Positions 14,384 to 40,220 of a stretch of DNA of 40,229 nt are shown here, one piece after another (the stretch's first letter is position 1; every line of letters starts with the position of its first letter). The stretch lies in sequence record SRR22947727_323; one strand, 5' to 3'. The notes beneath the pieces were generated by a model that was not told the DNA's origin, searched no databases, and saw nothing but the letters and a program-made list of their open reading frames with translations. The translations under genes and the position numbers were made by a program.

Positions 14384-14619
14384 TGCCACAAAAATTATCT
14401 CAGACACAAACACAAAAAACATCTCAAATATTATCTACACTTCAAGTTTTAGAACAAATTCGAGTTCATGAAGCAGAATGTGCTTTAAGATTAGAAAGAA
14501 TAAATGAGAAGTTTGAAGATATAGATAAAAAAATAAACGGAATAGAAAGTAAAATGTGGGTTATTGCAGCTTTGATAGTTGGTACTGCTATAACAAACAT
14601 TTTTATACAAAATATATGA
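14383..14619 (+). CDS. Small coiled-coil plus transmembrane protein (XhlA/holin-like)
   Basis: HEAECALR..INEKFEDIDKKINGIESKMW followed by a C-terminal hydrophobic helix; TAATG coupling at 14381. Confidence 0.6.
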   Translation: MPQKLSQTQTQKTSQILSTLQVLEQIRVHEAECALRLERINEKFEDIDKKINGIESKMWVIAALIVGTAITNIFIQNI

Positions 14620-14924
14620 TTACAATAACTGAAAAAGCAAAAGATTACTTAACTGAAATGGTGTGGTCTAAAGATAAAAAATATGCATTCTTGTCTGTTA
14701 ATGGAGGAGGATGTTCAGGTTTTCAATACAAATGGGATATGTTAGATGATTTATCTAATGATAATGATCTAATAGATGATATATTGGTTGTAGATAAAAT
14801 AGCAGAAATGTTTGTTATTGGTTGTACAGTTGATTATGTTACAGAATTTGGTGGCTCGTACCTTAAAGTAATCAATCCCAACGCCGTCGCTAGTTGTGGA
14901 TGTGGTGAATCTTTCGCTGTTTAA
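14616..14924 (+). CDS. iscA: A-type Fe-S cluster carrier protein (IscA/HesB/ErpA family)
   Basis: MITITEKA start, GGGCSGFQY, VDYVTEFGGS, NPNAVASCGCGESF with all three conserved Cys. True start at ATG 14616 (ATGA overlap). Confidence 0.93.
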   Translation: MITITEKAKDYLTEMVWSKDKKYAFLSVNGGGCSGFQYKWDMLDDLSNDNDLIDDILVVDKIAEMFVIGCTVDYVTEFGGSYLKVINPNAVASCGCGESFAV

Positions 14925-29828: not shown

Positions 29829-30483
29829 AAAGTTAAAAGTTTTTATTGGGTGGGATAGTAGAGAAGATATAGCTTATCAAGTTGCAAGATATTCAATATT
29901 AAAATATGATCCTAATATAGAAGTTGTACCTTTAAAATTATATGAATTGAGAGAACAAGGATGTTATTGGAGAGCAGGAGATAAAAAAGCTTCAACTGAG
30001 TTTACAATTAGTAGGTTTTTAGTTCCTTTCTTATCTGGTTATGAAGGTTATTCGTTGTTTATGGATTGTGATGTATTAGCTTTTGGAGATATGAAACACA
30101 TATTTAAAGAAATTAAAGGTGACCATGATGTGTGGTGTGTTAAACATGATTACAGTCCTAAATCCACTATGAAGATGGATGGGCAAATGCAACATATATA
30201 TCCTAAAAAGAATTGGTCTTCTGTTATGTTGTTTAACAACTCTAAGTGTGAAAAACTAACACCTAAATTAGTTAATGAAGAAACACCTATGTATTTGCAT
30301 AGAATGAATTGGGCAAATAGTATTGGAAGTTTAAAAAACAAATGGAATAGTCTAGCAGGTTATTACGAAGAAGATCCAATGTTAGTTCATTATACAGATG
30401 GAGGTCCATGGTTTGAAAAATATAGAGAATGTCCCTATAACAAGCAATGGAAAGACACTTTAAAGGAGATGTATGGATTATGA
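29821..30483 (+). CDS. GT-A glycosyltransferase (GT8-related)
   Basis: VFIGWDSREDIAYQVA..SI, STEFTISRFLVP, FMDCD, YPKKNWSSVMLFN, HYTDGGPW; GGAG RBS before ATG 29821. Confidence 0.85.
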   Translation: MDKKLKVFIGWDSREDIAYQVARYSILKYDPNIEVVPLKLYELREQGCYWRAGDKKASTEFTISRFLVPFLSGYEGYSLFMDCDVLAFGDMKHIFKEIKGDHDVWCVKHDYSPKSTMKMDGQMQHIYPKKNWSSVMLFNNSKCEKLTPKLVNEETPMYLHRMNWANSIGSLKNKWNSLAGYYEEDPMLVHYTDGGPWFEKYRECPYNKQWKDTLKEMYGL

Positions 30484-31115
30484 AAGCGTTTATAATACAA
30501 GTAGAAGGAATATTGCATAGTATGCATTCAGCTTTAGAAGCTCAAACGTCTTGTATGAAAAATGGTATAAGTGCAGAGATAGTAAATGGTTTTGTTCCAT
30601 CAAAAGCTGATCATGCTATTAAAGAATTAGGACTTAAACCTTATTCACCAGGTCCTAAACTTTACGAAATTAAAAATAGTAAACCTGGAGTAAGAGGATG
30701 CTTTATGTCTCATTTTTCTTTATGGGAACAATGTGCTAAACAAAACGAAAATTTTCTTATATTAGAACACGATGCTAGAATTGTTAAATCAATTCCTAAA
30801 GTAGTGTTTCAAGATGTTTTACATTTAGATGCATGGAGATTTGAACCTAATCCAGACTATGCAGAAAATGCACTAGAAGTAGAAGAATATTATGAAGTAA
30901 GAAAAGGTGTTAAGACTTCAAAAGGAGCTTATGCTTACATTGTAAAACCTCATGCAGCTAAAAAGTTAGTTGAATCTACTTTTAAACAAGGTTACACAGC
31001 CGCTGACATGCACATATCAGATAGATGTGGTGTTACAATAGAAAGAATACAACCAAGATGTGCAATAGTTAGCGATACAAAATCATTAACAAGCGATAGG
31101 GATTTTAATTTATGA
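30480..31115 (+). CDS. Glycosyltransferase family 25-like
   Basis: MKAFII, GCFMSHFSLW, LILEHDA, GAYAYIVKPHAAKKL, AAD. Confidence 0.8.
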   Translation: MKAFIIQVEGILHSMHSALEAQTSCMKNGISAEIVNGFVPSKADHAIKELGLKPYSPGPKLYEIKNSKPGVRGCFMSHFSLWEQCAKQNENFLILEHDARIVKSIPKVVFQDVLHLDAWRFEPNPDYAENALEVEEYYEVRKGVKTSKGAYAYIVKPHAAKKLVESTFKQGYTAADMHISDRCGVTIERIQPRCAIVSDTKSLTSDRDFNL

Positions 31116-31879
31116 AAATAGGAATAATATCTGGGGGATTTGACCCAATACATTCAGGACACATTGCTTATATAAAAGCAGCTAAACAACATTGTGATTT
31201 TTTACTTGTAGGAGTAAATTCTGACGATTGGCTAACAAGAAAAAAAGGTAGACCTTTTCTTCCTTTTGTGGAAAGAAAGATTATTTTGAAAGCTATGCAT
31301 GATGTAAACTATGCTACAAGTTTTGATGATACAGATGATTCAGCAATTGATATAATTTTAAGAGCAGCAGCTATGTTTCCAGATGGTGAACTTATTTTTA
31401 TGAATGGAGGAGATAGAACTAAACAGAACATTCCAGAGATGGAGTCTCCTTTGTTATCAGAATTTGATATTAATTTCAAATTTGGTATAGGTGGAAAAGA
31501 TAAGAAAAATGCTTCATCTAAAATTTTAGAAGATTTTAAAGCTCCTATAGTTGTTAGACCATGGGGATGGTATAGAGTATTAGATGAACAAAATGGTTGG
31601 GCAGTAAAAGAGCTGACAATTGAGCCTGGTAAAAGTTTAAGCGATCAAAGACACACTTGTAGATCAGAACATTGGCATGTTGTTGAAGGAAATGTAACAA
31701 TAGATTTAGAATACTCTAACAGTGATAAATTAACAGAAAATTTTCATGTTAAACAAAGTGCTGACATTCCTAGATTAACTTGGCATAAAGCTTACAACGA
31801 AGGAAAAAAACCAGCTAAAATTATTGAGACTTGGTTTGGTACTGAGCTAAACGAAGAAGATATTGAGAGGAGACCATAA
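31112..31879 (+). CDS. Cytidylyltransferase-like (HIGH) domain fused to a mannose-6-P-isomerase-type cupin
   Basis: SGGFDPIHSGH, VGVNSD.WL.RKKG, NGGDR; C-terminal RPWGWY..L, LSDQRH..RSEHWHVVEG, WH. Confidence 0.85.
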   Translation: MKIGIISGGFDPIHSGHIAYIKAAKQHCDFLLVGVNSDDWLTRKKGRPFLPFVERKIILKAMHDVNYATSFDDTDDSAIDIILRAAAMFPDGELIFMNGGDRTKQNIPEMESPLLSEFDINFKFGIGGKDKKNASSKILEDFKAPIVVRPWGWYRVLDEQNGWAVKELTIEPGKSLSDQRHTCRSEHWHVVEGNVTIDLEYSNSDKLTENFHVKQSADIPRLTWHKAYNEGKKPAKIIETWFGTELNEEDIERRP

Positions 31880-32289
31880 TGTTTGAATACAAATGTAAAT
31901 TATTGAGAGTTGTGGACGGAGATACAATTGATGTTGATATTGATTTAGGATTTGGTGTATGGATGAGGAAACAAAGAATAAGAATGTATGGAATTGATTC
32001 ACCAGAATCTAGGACAAGTGATCAAGAAGAAAAAAAATATGGCTTGGCTTCTAAAAATTTTCTCAAAGGAATGTGTGACGATGAACAAGGCCTTATTATA
32101 AAAACCAAAAAAGACGGAAAAGGAAAGTTTGGAAGAATTTTAGGTGAAATGTGGAGAATAACAAACTTTGCGGATAAATCTATTAACCAATATTGTATTG
32201 ATAAACACCACGCTGTTGCTTATTTTGGACAATCAAAAATAGATATAGAAGAACAACATTTAAAAAATAGAGAGTTAGTAACTTTATGA
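31879..32289 (+). CDS. Thermonuclease (SNase-like) family protein
   Basis: RVVDGDTIDVDIDLGF, RIRMYGIDSPESRT, GKFGRILG. Confidence 0.85.
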   Translation: MFEYKCKLLRVVDGDTIDVDIDLGFGVWMRKQRIRMYGIDSPESRTSDQEEKKYGLASKNFLKGMCDDEQGLIIKTKKDGKGKFGRILGEMWRITNFADKSINQYCIDKHHAVAYFGQSKIDIEEQHLKNRELVTL

Positions 32290-33083
32290 TAGATACACTT
32301 ATAATAGGACCATGTCAACATGAAAATTTAGACCATTCAAAAAAATTGATAGAATTAATTTTGAATGCAACAACTAATAAAGTAGAAAAATTATATTACA
32401 AAGCATCGTTTGACAAAGCTAATAGAAGTTCAATGAGCGGAAAAAGAGGTGTTGGTATTGAAGAAACATTATTAGATTTTCAAGCTTTAAAATTAATTTA
32501 TCCAAACTTGATGTTTCTTACTGATGTACATGAAATTAATCACATAATTGATATTGAAAACAGTGGTGTTGTAGATGTTATACAAATACCTGCTTTTTTA
32601 TGTAGACAAACAGATCTTGTACAAAGAGCTTGTCAGAGTGACATGATAGTTAATATTAAAAAAGGACAATTTCTAGCTCCTTGGGATATGAAAGGTATAC
32701 TGTCAAAAACAGACGGTGCTAACGATGTTTGGATAACCGAAAGAGGAACATCTTTTGGTTACAATACGTTAGTAAATGATTTTACTGGAATGCAATATAT
32801 CATGGACAACTTTGATAATAAATTTGTATATGATGTTACTCATAGCGTTCAAAAACCAGGAGGCTTAGGTACAAGTTCAGGTGGCAATAGAGATTATGTT
32901 CCAAGATTAGCTTATGCATCTGCTGCAATGGGTGTAGATAGTTTTTTTATGGAAGTACATGATGATCCTGACAACGCACCAAGTGATGGGCCTAATATGA
33001 TACATGTTGATTCATTACCTGAAGTAATTAATAATTTAAATTCTTTCGTAGAAACGAGTGTAGTATGTCAAACGTATGGTTAG
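32286..33083 (+). CDS. kdsA: 3-deoxy-D-manno-octulosonate 8-phosphate (Kdo8P) synthase
   Basis: GPC, KASFDKANRSS, TDVHE, QIPAFLCRQTDL, NIKKGQFLAP, ERGTSFGY, DVTHSVQ, EVHDDP..APSDGPN. Confidence 0.95.
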   Translation: MIDTLIIGPCQHENLDHSKKLIELILNATTNKVEKLYYKASFDKANRSSMSGKRGVGIEETLLDFQALKLIYPNLMFLTDVHEINHIIDIENSGVVDVIQIPAFLCRQTDLVQRACQSDMIVNIKKGQFLAPWDMKGILSKTDGANDVWITERGTSFGYNTLVNDFTGMQYIMDNFDNKFVYDVTHSVQKPGGLGTSSGGNRDYVPRLAYASAAMGVDSFFMEVHDDPDNAPSDGPNMIHVDSLPEVINNLNSFVETSVVCQTYG

Positions 33084-33577
33084 GATCTTGGTTACAATGT
33101 AAACCTTATATTACAAATTTTAACACAGCAATAGACATAGGTTATAGAAGAGGTGAATTTGCTCAATATCTTTTACCAGAATTTAAAAAGGTAATTGGTT
33201 TTGAATTTAGATTTCCAAGAAATATGTCACTAGAAAATTTAGAAGTTTACAATCATGCAATAGGTGATGAAAACACAACAAGATTCACTTCAAGCAAAGC
33301 AGGAAGAATAAAAGGATCTGGACCTAGAGAAGTTATTATTAAAAAATTAGATAGTTTCAACTATAATAATATAGGATTTATTAAAATAGATGTAGAAGGA
33401 TACGAACCTAAAGTTCTTCAAGGAGCTAAAGAAACAATTGATAGATGTAATCCAGTTATATGTTGTGAAATTAATAGAGAAGATAACAACTCACAAGAAA
33501 TTCTTGAAAGTTGGGGTTACGTATTAAAAGAAATAGACAAACTACAAGGTCATGATTATATATTTGTAAGGAGTTAA
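33065..33577 (+). CDS. FkbM-family methyltransferase
   Basis: AIDIG, KKLDSF, FIKIDVEGYE..VLQGA..TI....PVI..E. Confidence 0.85.
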   Translation: MSNVWLGSWLQCKPYITNFNTAIDIGYRRGEFAQYLLPEFKKVIGFEFRFPRNMSLENLEVYNHAIGDENTTRFTSSKAGRIKGSGPREVIIKKLDSFNYNNIGFIKIDVEGYEPKVLQGAKETIDRCNPVICCEINREDNNSQEILESWGYVLKEIDKLQGHDYIFVRS

Positions 33578-33578
33578 C

Positions 33579-33929
33579 ATGAAAGCAGGAAAAATATGGG
33601 GACAAACAGAACTTATACACGCTAATGGAGTTCTTGAGTTTCATAGAATAGAATACAAAACAGGGTTCAAATGTTCAGAACACGAACATAAATATAAATG
33701 GAATGGCTTCTTTGTTGAGTCAGGAAAGATGATTGTTCGTGTGTGGCAAGATGGAGAACAAAAGGGTTTAGTTGATGAAACTATTCTTGGACCAGGAGAT
33801 TTTACTCAAGTAAAACCTGGAAAAATACATCAGTTTGAAGGACTTGAAGATGGTGTAGCTTTTGAATTGTATTGGGCAGAATTCAACCACGACGACATAG
33901 TGAGAAGAACTATTGGAACATCAACGTAA
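33579..33929 (+). CDS. Cupin-fold protein, possibly a sugar isomerase/epimerase
   Basis: GKIWG.T, CSEHEH..KWNGFFVESG, LGPGD...VKPG.IHQF, FELYW. Confidence 0.75.
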   Translation: MKAGKIWGQTELIHANGVLEFHRIEYKTGFKCSEHEHKYKWNGFFVESGKMIVRVWQDGEQKGLVDETILGPGDFTQVKPGKIHQFEGLEDGVAFELYWAEFNHDDIVRRTIGTST

Positions 33930-37655: not shown

Positions 37656-38379
37656 TATAAATCCAAACTATTACAAAAAATATGTTGAATCAAGAACTAC
37701 TGCCACACATAGTATTTTAAAAGAAAGAAATGAAACAGTTAAATCTAATTCAATTCTTTTTAATGGTGGAGCTGCTCAAAGATTTGGTTGGGATTATATT
37801 TGTGAAAGTATACCAGAAACTAAACATCATTCACCTTGTCTTGAAGTATTAAAAATATTTAGAGATGACAAGTATCTTGAATATGATAGAATATTATTTT
37901 TAGATACAGACACTTATTATTATCCTGATTCTCCTAACATTCTTGAATATTATCCAGATGAAGGTTTTCATGCTGTAAGCAGAATGGGTAAAATATTTGA
38001 CACTGGAAAAGAACCAGATCATTTAGCTAGAATAGGAAAATCTTATCTTGTAGAAAACTACAAACAAAATTATTTTAATACTGGTGTAATATTATTAGAT
38101 AAAAATACTATAATAAAAATGAGACCTTTTCTAACACATGATGTAATTGAAAATTTGTTAGACAAAAGAGGTCTTTGGTCAGATGATCAATCTGCTCTTA
38201 ATATAGCAGCTTATGAGTCAGGAGTTAAGTTAACTCCTATGCATGAATATTGGAATCAAATGGACAAAAGATATAAAGAAGGATATATTGTACACCTAAA
38301 AGGTAGTATAAAGAACAGAGAAAACGTTTTTGATAAAAGAGCAGAGGAGTATTTGAATGCCGTTTCCAGCAGTAATTGA
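37618..38379 (+). CDS. Glycosyltransferase family 8-like
   Basis: YDRILFLDTD, YFNTGVILL, DQSALN, WN, IVHLKG. Confidence 0.8.
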   Translation: MQKNLKTLLIQIDINPNYYKKYVESRTTATHSILKERNETVKSNSILFNGGAAQRFGWDYICESIPETKHHSPCLEVLKIFRDDKYLEYDRILFLDTDTYYYPDSPNILEYYPDEGFHAVSRMGKIFDTGKEPDHLARIGKSYLVENYKQNYFNTGVILLDKNTIIKMRPFLTHDVIENLLDKRGLWSDDQSALNIAAYESGVKLTPMHEYWNQMDKRYKEGYIVHLKGSIKNRENVFDKRAEEYLNAVSSSN

Positions 38380-38941
38380 AATTGAAAAAGATGGAAGAGA
38401 AAAAGCATATGATGTATATACTAGATTAGCAAAAGATAGAATTTTATTTCTAAACGGTGTAGTAGAAGAAAACATGGCTAATCATATTATTGCTACATTG
38501 TTGTGGTTAGAGTCACAAAATCCTAAAGCTCCTATTAATATGTATGTTAACTCACCAGGAGGAAGTGTTGTAGCTGGGATGGCTATATATGATATTATGA
38601 TGTATATACAGTCTCCTATTACTACAATAGTAACAGGGCAAGCAGCTTCAATGGGATCTCTTCTTGCATGTGCAGGAAAAAAAAGGTTAGTAACTGTTAA
38701 TAGTAGACATATGATTCATCAACCTTTAGGAGGAGCTCAGGGTCAAGCTACAGAAGTAGAAATAGCTTTTAGAGAATTACAAAGATGGAAAAAGGTTCTA
38801 ACTGACATATATGTAAAACATACTGGACATCCATATGAAAAACTAGAACAAGATATGGATAGAGATAATTTTATGACAGCTCATGAAGCTGTGAAATATA
38901 ACTTAGCAGACGAGGTAGTAAATGAACGTAAACCTGATTGA
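38357..38941 (+). CDS. clpP: ATP-dependent Clp protease proteolytic subunit
   Basis: YDVYTRL.KDRI.FL, YVNSPGG, GQAASMG (Ser), MIHQPLGG (His), DMDRDNFM (Asp). Confidence 0.95.
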   Translation: MPFPAVIEIEKDGREKAYDVYTRLAKDRILFLNGVVEENMANHIIATLLWLESQNPKAPINMYVNSPGGSVVAGMAIYDIMMYIQSPITTIVTGQAASMGSLLACAGKKRLVTVNSRHMIHQPLGGAQGQATEVEIAFRELQRWKKVLTDIYVKHTGHPYEKLEQDMDRDNFMTAHEAVKYNLADEVVNERKPD

Positions 38942-39554
38942 TAGTATGGGAAGTGATGTTTCTGTTGTTAACGCAGCAAGAGTATCTTTTGCAAAGGAAG
39001 TCAAACATTTTAGTGATAAAGATGAAGGCCTATTAAGATATTTAGCTACACACGATCATTGGACTCCTTTTTCTCAAGTTACTTATCAGGTAAGAATTAA
39101 AGCTCCTATATTTGTTGCAAGACAATGGTTTAAACATATGATAGGAATTACTAGAAACGAAACTAGTAGAAGATATGTTTCAGATACACCAGAATTTTGG
39201 TCTCCACACCAATGGAGACTAGCTGCAGATAATAAAAAACAAGGATCTTCTAATGAAATATATCCGGATACAGACATAAGTTATGCTTATCAAGAAACTA
39301 TTAGACACACAGAAGATACTTATAAATTGATGTTGGCAAAAGGTATTTGTCCTGAACAAGCTAGAGCAATATTACCTCAAGCTATGATGACTGAATGGAT
39401 TGAGACAGGATCTTTAGCAGCTGCTGCTAGAATTTATAAACTTAGAACAGAAGAACACGCACAAGTTGAAATACAAAAATTGTCTGAGTACTTTGGAGAA
39501 GAAGTAGCTAGAATAGCTCCAGTTTCGTGGAAGTATCTAATAAATAAGACATAA
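38922..39554 (+). CDS. thyX: Flavin-dependent thymidylate synthase
   Basis: VVNAARVSF, HWTPF, APIFVARQWFKH, NETSRRY, PEQARAILPQ, LR...HAQVEI. Confidence 0.95.
   Translation: MNVNLIDSMGSDVSVVNAARVSFAKEVKHFSDKDEGLLRYLATHDHWTPFSQVTYQVRIKAPIFVARQWFKHMIGITRNETSRRYVSDTPEFWSPHQWRLAADNKKQGSSNEIYPDTDISYAYQETIRHTEDTYKLMLAKGICPEQARAILPQAMMTEWIETGSLAAAARIYKLRTEEHAQVEIQKLSEYFGEEVARIAPVSWKYLINKT
39539..39546 (+). promoter_or_regulatory. Late promoter-like box upstream of the riboswitch
   Basis: AATAAATA ends 9 nt before the first aptamer helix. Confidence 0.5.
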
Positions 39555-39600
39555 TCGTTCACCCTCACGGGCGGAAGTAGGCAATCGCTGAAGGAACGCA
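39554..39600 (+). ncRNA. Glutamine riboswitch aptamer (glnA RNA motif type)
   Basis: P1 CGTTC (39556-60)/GAACG (39594-98); P2 CCC-TCAC-GGG; conserved CGGAAGTA and GAAG E-loop strands; P3 GGC-AATC-GCT. Matches the three-way-junction consensus ATCGTTCA..CGGAAGTA..GAAGGAACGC as recalled. Confidence 0.85.
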
Positions 39601-39627
39601 CCTAACTTTAAAAAGAGGAGGGTGGCA

Positions 39628-39741
39628 ATGACTTACAGACCATATCAATGGAAAAAGTTTGTTCAAGCACGTAGACGTGCCTTAGTTCATAAAATACTGA
39701 ACTATCGCATAGCTAAATGCACATGTAAACAAACTGCTTAG
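39628..39741 (+). CDS. 37-aa basic peptide downstream of the riboswitch (not in ORF track)
   Basis: MTYRPYQWKKFVQARRRALVHKILNYRIAKCTCKQTA*; strong GAGGAGG RBS; followed by a terminator. Confidence 0.75.
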   Translation: MTYRPYQWKKFVQARRRALVHKILNYRIAKCTCKQTA

Positions 39742-39760
39742 TTCGATTAAAATCTAATAG

Positions 39761-39789
39761 AAAAAAGGGTCCTTCGGGACCTTTTTTTT
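39761..39789 (+). terminator. Intrinsic terminator with C(UUCG)G tetraloop
   Basis: AAAAAAGGGTCC-TTCG-GGACC-T8. Confidence 0.92.
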
Positions 39790-39821
39790 GTTGACTTTAG
39801 TATAAAATGTGTGATTATAAT
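39790..39821 (+). promoter_or_regulatory. Putative early promoter, copy 1
   Basis: GTTGACTTTAGT-N4-AATGTGTGAT followed by TATAAT; AGGAG RBS before ATG 39848. Confidence 0.7.
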
Positions 39822-39847: not shown

Positions 39848-40180
39848 ATGATTAAAGTAACTGTTATGCACAAGCACCGTGAAATCATTGATGGATTAGA
39901 TGTAGTTGCTGATGTTCACGCACCTACACACAATGTTATGGAGGCATTAGAATATGCTTATAAATGGACTCAGAACATGTCTGGTTCGTGGTCTAAGAAA
40001 ATAGGTTCTGATTCTAATGATAACGTAGAAGTTTTAGAAACTAGAAAAGATGGTTTAGGATTGAGAAGTACTATGGTAGGTGATAGAATGATGATTGATT
40101 GTTCTTTAGGTTTTAACACTGGAGCAGAATTTGAAGTAAGTAACTTTGGTTTTGAAGAAGTTAATATGGATATAAATTAA
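39848..40180 (+). CDS. Hypothetical early protein
   Basis: 110 aa with LEYAYKWTQN..GSWS and GLRST.VGD; own promoter and RBS. Confidence 0.7.
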   Translation: MIKVTVMHKHREIIDGLDVVADVHAPTHNVMEALEYAYKWTQNMSGSWSKKIGSDSNDNVEVLETRKDGLGLRSTMVGDRMMIDCSLGFNTGAEFEVSNFGFEEVNMDIN

Positions 40181-40182
40181 CT

Positions 40183-40220
40183 GTTGACTTTAGTTCTTAA
40201 TGTGTGATAATGAATATAAT
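40183..40220 (+). promoter_or_regulatory. Putative early promoter, copy 2
   Basis: GTTGACTTTAGT-N4-AATGTGTGATAAT...TATAAT, a near-identical repeat of 39790. Confidence 0.7.

Follow-up and report, generated by a model that had tools for sequence, protein, structure and literature searches.

Which genes do marine phages place under the control of glutamine riboswitches, and by what mechanism? This question is raised by sequence record SRR22947727_323, a stretch of 40,229 nucleotides with a GC content of 32% (hereafter the window, meaning the whole stretch that was analyzed). An earlier note on this DNA had described, near its 3' end, a compact unit in which a late-promoter-like motif, a glnA-type aptamer, a Shine–Dalgarno (SD) region, a short open reading frame (ORF) and a terminator follow each other. 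All of these parts could be identified, and the positions given for them were correct to within two bases. Judged by its gene content, the window is a fragment of a marine T4-like myovirus, and the unit is probably a late-expressed, glutamine-gated micropeptide cassette of this phage, an estimate that refers to its regulatory architecture.

A glutamine aptamer linked to a conserved micropeptide gene

The only Rfam match in the 40 kb window was to the type 1 glutamine riboswitch aptamer (RF01739, glnA RNA), with a score of 56.6 bits (gathering score 35), an E-value of 5e-10 and an alignment that covered the full covariance model (positions 1–53 of 53). The second model that the earlier note had named for a check, RF01704 (Downstream-peptide or type 2 glutamine riboswitch), gave no match at the gathering score in the window. 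The claim of a glnA-type aptamer in a phage is thus supported, as is the start proposed at 39554; the end lies at 39602, two bases beyond the 39600 given before. Within 39556–39599, the three stems are present along with the conserved junction (CGGAAGUA) and, ahead of a C known as the linchpin (see below), the 3' strand GAAGGAACGC; all pairs are standard, one of them being G-U. By these features the window RNA is an ordinary member of the type 1 glutamine riboswitch family, which presumably binds glutamine.

The aptamer is followed by an ORF for a basic peptide of 37 amino acids (MTYRPYQWKKFVQARRRALVHKILNYRIAKCTCKQTA), which starts with ATG at 39628 and ends with a TAG stop codon at 39739–39741. 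When the peptide alone was used as a query, 47 homologs could be retrieved from viral contigs, and in all 47 of these peptide-anchored loci the aptamer was located 29–32 nt before the ATG. Each of the 20 relatives scanned with Rfam passed the gathering score (50.9–61.1 bits), one of them carrying tandem aptamers. Comparison of 33 distinct 27-codon cores (522 pairs) gave pooled synonymous (pS) and nonsynonymous (pN) differences of 0.37 and 0.135, respectively, with a median dN/dS of 0.27, and as many as four different codons encode an invariant residue (CGT, CGA, CGG and AGA for R15). The ORF is a real gene under purifying selection and looks translated, which agrees with the unannotated basic micropeptide suggested previously. 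The aptamer–peptide unit is beyond chance because of the covariance-model E-value, the linkage in 47 of 47 loci and the purifying selection on the ORF taken together.

The earlier note had proposed tblastn as a test of conservation. In 50,697 isolate phage records, tblastn of the peptide gave chance matches only (E ∼3), and it is the peptide search of viral contigs, with its 47 homologs, that revealed conservation. A family profile found only seven representatives (31–56 amino acids) among 1.84 billion proteins. None of seven family members matched any Pfam family at an E-value of 10, no match to the family was present in PHROGs and no usable match to the peptide in ESM Atlas. Among 185,579 species genomes scanned by pattern, the only match was a weak one in an Anaplasma contig; it had stop codons and no aptamer and was rejected as spurious. 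Across these searches, the peptide family is seen solely in viral contigs, always behind a type 1 glutamine aptamer.

The consensus of the window peptide cluster is MTYRPFxWKxFxxARxRAxVHKILNYR. AlphaFold2 predicts a single helix (residues 5–33, mean predicted local distance difference test score 79.8), and the conserved residues W8, F11, A14, A18, H21 and N25 recur with helical periodicity. The first five codons (ATG ACT TAC AGA CCA, window 39628–39642) are invariant at the nucleotide level in the 33 distinct cores, with the exception of ACA in two of them, suggesting an RNA-level constraint on the initiation region.

Micropeptide families behind viral glutamine aptamers

To obtain a class-wide set, IMG/VR was scanned with an exact pattern of the aptamer core, which gave at least 120 loci. 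The matches listed comprise 122 aptamers (121 viral ones and that of the window, tandem copies counted). Downstream of 113 of them, an SD was present together with an ORF of 18–81 amino acids that begins with ATG, at a distance of 17–36 nt, three of the ORFs being located 89–91 nt away behind tandem aptamers; the nine misses were mostly due to contig-end cuts or GTG starts. The 111 complete peptides from the matches listed formed 19 clusters, 12 of which had three or more members. By this clustering, at least 12 recurrent micropeptide families (18–81 amino acids) lie behind viral glutamine aptamers (IMG/VR loci L005–L124). DUF4278 (PF14105) was matched by eight of ten scanned peptides from behind viral aptamers, in YRG-repeat families only. 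One 64-amino-acid payload family matched phrog_32989 (no assigned function), and the remaining payload families had no Pfam or PHROG match. One riboswitch locus was found in each of five long viral contigs (73–143 kb, 28–67% complete).

The same arrangement could be observed in the OM43 phage Melnitz (MZ577097.1, ∼46398–46570; locus L125, 1500–1672), where GGGGAGAGTG, an ATG and an ORF of 32 amino acids (MTLYQQWCYLKAQKEYRRRQKILMYFRIRLKG) lie behind an RF01739 match of 52.8 bits; the encoded peptide is a member of a different viral family (cluster 9). In the GenBank record, a minus-strand hypothetical ORF stands at the site of this ORF, and the aptamer is included in the transfer-messenger RNA (tmRNA) feature, at the 3' end of that annotation; the tmRNA lies directly upstream of the cassette. 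At an E-value of 10, the Melnitz aptamer was the sole DNA match in the 50,697 phage records, and at 1e-5 these records contained none.

Expression platform

In the model of Klahn et al. (2018; PMC6212724) for gifB, the C after stem P1 and its neighbors pair with the ribosome-binding site, and glutamine melts this duplex; an ON response of the Synechocystis gifB switch was demonstrated in vivo (PMC6212724). In the ligand-bound glutamine riboswitch, the C forms the 'linchpin' pair G23-C60 with a junction G (PMC11477058; the linchpin also in PMC6212724). C39599 of the window corresponds to the linchpin C and is the first base of a 3' tail, CACCU.

Covariation was analyzed in an alignment of 84 distinct viral leaders with 500 shuffles. 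For the helix between the tail (C39599–U39603) and G39620–G39624, 80.0% of the cells were paired compared with 74.6±0.8% after shuffling, a level that none of the 500 shuffles reached, and double-change cells numbered 28 compared with 12.2. Slid controls were paired in 34–58%. Compensatory changes were found in three of the five pairs (pair 9–37 being CG in 38, UA in 19 and UG in 6 cases), and the tail:SD types CACC:GGUG, CACU:AGUG, CAUC:GAUG and CAAU:AUUG occur within single peptide clusters. The mean length of the tail helix was 4.86 versus 4.42±0.05 in a permutation test. When the aptamer was enforced, the fold program formed the tail–SD helix unprompted (−18.3 kcal/mol). An SD arranged as GGAG plus (G/A)GUG is common to most viral leaders.

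Given the tail–SD covariation and its match to the gifB duplex model, the unit is most likely a translational ON switch with the tail as anti-SD strand; an ON switch was also what the earlier note had suggested. The late promoter AATAAATA (39539–39546) would start a short transcript at ∼39552–39554, with the type 1 aptamer at its 5' end. At low glutamine, C39599–U39603 would pair with G39620–G39624, the 3' half of the SD, and block ribosome loading; in the window phage, the 5' strand 39559–39566 could pair with the SD under this condition as well. Upon binding of glutamine, C39599 would move into the core of the aptamer and form the linchpin pair with a junction G, so that the tail helix would melt, the SD would be freed and the 37-amino-acid ORF (39628–39741) would be translated. 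The transcript would end at the terminator (39760–39789).

A different strand had been assigned to sequestration by the earlier note, namely CACCCUC (39560–39566, P1/P2): the unliganded RNA would unfold the aptamer to sequester GAGGGUG, and glutamine would re-form P1/P2. We consider this possible, though doubtful. CACCCTC is the exact complement of GAGGGTG (39618–39624) over 7 nt, a helix that reaches 8 bp with U39559–G39625, and the minimum free energy (MFE) fold of the leader uses it. At least 6 bp of it are kept in all 37 unique units of the peptide family; these 6 bp never vary within the family and are therefore uninformative either way. Across the 84 leaders, on the other hand, no covariation could be observed for this helix (56.7% of the cells paired versus 57.4±0.6% shuffled, with 443 of the 500 shuffles at least as high), and leaders whose SD reads AGUG or GAUG show the matching change in the tail and none in the 5' strand. 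The full 8 bp are restricted to the window and to L127 and L143, two close relatives, with 6 bp in the remaining 34 family units. The extra pairs of the window stem from its UCAC loop, in place of which relatives carry GNRA loops. Covariation thus points to the 3' tail as the conserved anti-SD, with a possible contribution of the 5' strand to repression in the lineage of the window; the pairing proposed earlier holds for the window and its closest relatives and not for the class.

Several observations weigh against a late, tail-gated ON switch. The MFE fold with the 5' strand is the more stable one (−23.0 versus −18.3 kcal/mol with the aptamer enforced), and the MFE z-score of the leader is merely −1.38. 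The tail helix has five pairs, one of them U-G, and adds ∼−4.6 kcal/mol (−12.7 versus −8.1). A tail helix of at least 4 bp is missing in 18 of the 84 leaders, in which another platform is therefore needed, and the shuffles overstate the significance of the covariation because the leader sequences are related. In the window, the promoter motif is about as frequent as expected by chance (AATAAATA 7 times versus 10.6 expected, TATAAATA 9 versus 8.3), and the late-promoter call therefore rests on conservation in relatives. One metatranscriptome contig of 179 nt, from a relative ∼95% alike, spans 39504–39667 and begins upstream of the promoter motif; such contigs show neither start, end nor strand and are not taken as a sign of expression, and this one, if RNA, hints at read-through from thyX.

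Promoter, terminator and neighboring genes

The positions of all features are shown in Table 1. Within the peptide family, the motif [AT]ATAAATA is found 6–13 nt before the CGTTCA of the aptamer in 31 of the 37 unique units, though the upstream genes differ, which supports the late-promoter-like motif described previously. The other six units have either CTAAATA (four) or tandem aptamers (two), in which the box presumably precedes the first aptamer. In the class-wide set, the motif was present at 27 of 109 loci among the matches listed, compared with 23 of 1757 control windows. Neither the late sigma factor gp55 nor the coactivator gp33 could be identified by ORF scan within the 40 kb window; Melnitz, which belongs to the same phage group, is annotated with a gp33-like late-transcription coactivator. 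With the promoter spacing of T4, the transcript would start at ∼39552–39554, with the aptamer at its very 5' end.

Table 1 Features of the cassette and its flanks in the window
Feature	Position	Strand	Basis
thyX, flavin-dependent thymidylate synthase; upstream neighbor, outside the conserved unit	38922–39554	+	Pfam Thy1, E 4.6e-41
T4-type late-promoter-like motif AATAAATA (7/8 to TATAAATA), within the 3' end of thyX	39539–39546	+	Sequence
Type 1 glutamine riboswitch aptamer (RF01739, glnA RNA)	39554–39602	+	cmscan
Aptamer P1	39556–39560 with 39594–39598	+	Pairs checked
Anti-SD strand of the earlier note, UCACCCUC (end of P1 5' strand, P2 5' strand and loop); pairs with 39618–39625	39559–39566	+	MFE fold
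Aptamer P2, loop UCAC	39562–39564 with 39569–39571	+	Pairs checked
Aptamer junction CGGAAGUA	39572–39579	+	Sequence
Aptamer P3	39580–39582 with 39587–39589	+	Pairs checked
3' tail CACCU, proposed anti-SD strand; pairs with 39620–39624	39599–39603	+	Covariation, fold
SD region GAGGAGGGTGG (SD = GAGGAGG)	39615–39625	+	Sequence
ORF, 37 amino acids, MTYRPYQWKKFVQARRRALVHKILNYRIAKCTCKQTA, basic micropeptide	39628–39741	+	ORF list
Intrinsic terminator GAAAAAAGGGTCC TTCG GGACCTTTTTTTT	39760–39789	+	Terminator scan
Sigma-70-like early promoter of the next gene (ORF 39848–40180); 3' boundary of the unit	39789–39818	+	Promoter scan

The UUCG terminator noted before was recovered as a GC-rich hairpin with a 13-bp stem, a TTCG loop and a run of eight T (39760–39789). 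Two terminator-like sites were found in the region versus 0.3 expected, and the terminator is kept in the close relatives L127 and L143. With a permissive pattern, a terminator-like site could be detected after the ORF in just 11 of 35 relatives, many of which have a convergent gene there. The description of the unit as self-contained is thus appropriate for the lineage of the window and not for the class as a whole.

Upstream, the TAA stop codon of thyX (39552–39554) touches the first base of the aptamer. Among the sampled family loci, thyX occupies this place solely in the lineage of the window (L127 by PHROGs; L143 with the same ORF layout). Across the family loci, the cassette is found next to varying genes, among them thyX and those for a ClpX-like ATPase, a ferredoxin and a radical-SAM enzyme, and thus behaves like a mobile unit.

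Downstream, a second copy of the next-gene promoter is located at 40182–40211 (direct repeat D1, 83% identical). A near-identical promoter (TGTTGACTTTAGT...GTGTGAT(T)AT) stands before each small downstream gene, and also occurs at 65–95, 459–490 and 708–740 of L001, a relative with 96% identity; the first copy of the TGTTGACTTTAGT-type promoter directly abuts the terminator hairpin. We take these promoter/hairpin repeats to be reminiscent of the 'promoter-early stem-loop' shuffling cassettes of T4-type phages. Just past the end of the window, at 776–950 of L001, ∼175 nt between an early promoter and the next ORF are richer in GC and look structured; this stretch had no Rfam match at an E-value of 0.1.

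Phage and host

The ORF scan of the window revealed structural genes for sheath, tube, portal, prohead protease, scaffold and gp23, together with PhoH, UvsY, UvsW, gp46/47-like proteins, a sugar-modification cluster, ClpP and ThyX. Both gp23 and the portal protein are ∼50% identical to their cyanomyovirus counterparts. Marine metagenome and virome DNA contigs (Logan) cover the stretch, of which two metatranscriptomes hold small shares.

No photosynthesis domain was present among the 47 window ORFs scanned. An alphaproteobacterial-type two-piece (permuted) tmRNA was found in 9 of 20 scanned relatives (L139, L144, L147, L150, L152, L154, L160, L165 and L173), on the same strand and 0.1–2.6 kb downstream of the peptide, and the gene after the unit (ORF 39848–40180) has isolate homologs solely in Melnitz (35% identity). 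Because of these tmRNAs and the Melnitz link, a non-cyanobacterial host appears plausible, as the earlier note had supposed from the lack of photosynthesis genes. In L147 and L150, the tmRNA begins a few bases past the stop codon of the peptide.

The window also carries, at 30447–33929 and 14556–14924, a sugar/lipopolysaccharide-modification cluster and an IscA-like Fe-S assembly protein. The cluster includes a GT25 protein, a cytidylyltransferase/mannose-6-P isomerase fusion, a KDO-8-P/DAHP synthase-like protein, an FkbM methyltransferase and a cupin.

Possible functions of the micropeptide

Our best guess is that the peptide may be a short-lived binder of a host protein, which, as soon as glutamine abounds late in infection, would tune the use of nitrogen or energy. 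As such it would be a functional analog, and not a relative, of the cyanobacterial glutamine synthetase inactivating factors IF7 and IF17.

Glutamine synthetase itself is one candidate target. The peptide would then be a phage-encoded inactivating factor of the host enzyme, made at high glutamine, which we regard as rather unlikely. IF17 is driven by the same riboswitch class in cyanobacteria (PMC6212724), viral aptamers also precede true DUF4278 (IF17-like) peptides (the eight of ten mentioned above), the single locus in each of the five long contigs looks as if various peptides fill one slot, and the window peptide is small, basic and predicted to be helical. However, hhalign against the viral DUF4278-like peptides gave a probability of only 1.4%, none of the seven family members matched Pfam even at an E-value of 10, and the N-terminus reads YRP, not YRG. 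Moreover, the OM43 host of Melnitz has no glnA according to PMC9004378, yet Melnitz has a unit of aptamer and micropeptide (of another family). Sequence support being absent, the sole connection of the peptide with the enzyme is the regulator shared with IF17, which is a reasonable lead. Comparison by hhalign with two other Trp-basic viral peptide families (probabilities of 0.3% and 7.6%) left a common origin unsupported.

A second candidate is an arginine-rich RNA- or ribosome-binding helix, which might act as an antiterminator of the N type, modulate translation or bind its own leader in a feedback loop. The conserved ARxRA core and the residues W8, F11 and H21 are predicted to lie on one helix face, the P2 loops of relatives are of GNRA type, and the peptide presumably resembles the arginine-rich motifs of phage N and Rev. 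We consider this function improbable: no homology to any RNA-binding family was found (Pfam at an E-value of 10, PHROGs and ESM Atlas), and arginine is not abundant in the other families of peptides that follow this aptamer.

A role of the peptide in the timing of lysis or at the envelope is quite improbable. Late expression is predicted, the peptide is cationic and amphipathic, and the authors of PMC9004378 speculated on riboswitch control of lysis in Melnitz; but the peptide lacks a hydrophobic segment, the unit has no lysis genes next to it in the window and the neighborhoods vary among relatives. The probability left after these three functions goes to some other host protein.

That the ORF is incidental and the riboswitch controls thyX upstream, the 110-amino-acid gene downstream or a tmRNA, as in the assignment to ssrA in Melnitz (PMC9004378) and with a tmRNA downstream in 9 of 20 relatives, is very improbable, given that a strong terminator and a separate early promoter lie between the ORF and the next gene, that the ORF is constant at a fixed distance and under amino-acid selection while the neighbors differ, and that in Melnitz, too, an SD and a 32-amino-acid ORF follow the aptamer.

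The C-termini of most family members end in -AA or -xA (LRAA, FQAA, LKAA and KQTA, among others), similar to ssrA-type ClpX degrons. ClpP is encoded two genes upstream in the window (38357–38941), and a ClpX-like ATPase is convergent on the cassette in three relatives (L128, 548–1750; L135, 3111–4316; L162, 3106–4311). Rapid turnover of the peptide by the phage Clp protease is an idea that these sequences might suggest.

Implications

The most likely targets of phage glutamine riboswitches are very small ORFs overlooked by gene callers, which affects the published assignment of the Melnitz riboswitch to tmRNA, since an SD and a 32-amino-acid ORF follow the aptamer there. It would also imply that abundant marine phages read the glutamine pool of the host late in infection and answer with dedicated micropeptides, which gives a testable way of finding new regulators of the nitrogen metabolism of oligotrophic bacteria. 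In addition, the ∼80 natural leaders with a covarying anti-SD of 5–6 bp form a compact design set for ON switches. A bolder proposal, which as a whole seems distinctly unlikely to us, is that the glutamine riboswitch serves marine phages as a portable 'nitrogen-status checkpoint' that accommodates many unrelated micropeptides, of at least 12 recurrent families. The window family would then be among the first protein inhibitors of glutamine synthetase or another central nitrogen enzyme in non-cyanobacterial hosts (for example, SAR11-type bacteria), with the -AA/-xA C-terminus leading to rapid turnover by phage Clp.

Comparison with known systems

Glutamine riboswitches have been reported in T4-like cyanophages, Melnitz and pelagimyophages (PMC9004378, PMC9964418 and PMC9602691). 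They share with the window the same element and the same broad phage group, and are often located near thyX or tmRNA. The excerpts of these three articles do not name a downstream micropeptide; the Melnitz riboswitch was published as a control of ssrA and lysis (PMC9004378), whereas an SD and a short ORF directly follow the aptamer in both the window and Melnitz. Our literature search, based on listings and excerpts in a library with few subscription journals, found no description of phage micropeptides behind a glutamine riboswitch.

Among cellular systems, the type 1 riboswitch of gifB (PMC6212724) is similar in having an RF01739 aptamer directly before the SD of a small-protein gene, a proposed duplex between tail and ribosome-binding site and, presumably, ON logic. 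It differs in its NtcA-regulated host promoter and its DUF4278 product IF17, whereas the phage unit combines a T4-type late promoter with a product of 37 amino acids that lacks DUF4278. Like IF7 and IF17, the window peptide is small and basic, and its synthesis would rise with glutamine; however, no homology between them is detectable, and the phage hosts are probably not cyanobacteria. The RF01704 Downstream-peptide or yfr6-type ORFs of marine picocyanobacteria (PMC2864571 and PMC6212724) also have a glutamine aptamer before very short ORFs (17–100 amino acids), but the aptamer is of the other type, the system is cellular and the ORFs are mostly DUF4278, whereas the window family is confined to viral contigs and is not DUF4278. 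Very small proteins are likewise driven by a cyclic di-GMP riboswitch in C. difficile (PMC13724677), where ligand, organism and protein type differ and the likeness is an analogy only. Thus, the aptamer class and its presence in phages were already known, and what is new is the late-promoter cassette and its non-DUF4278 micropeptide payloads.

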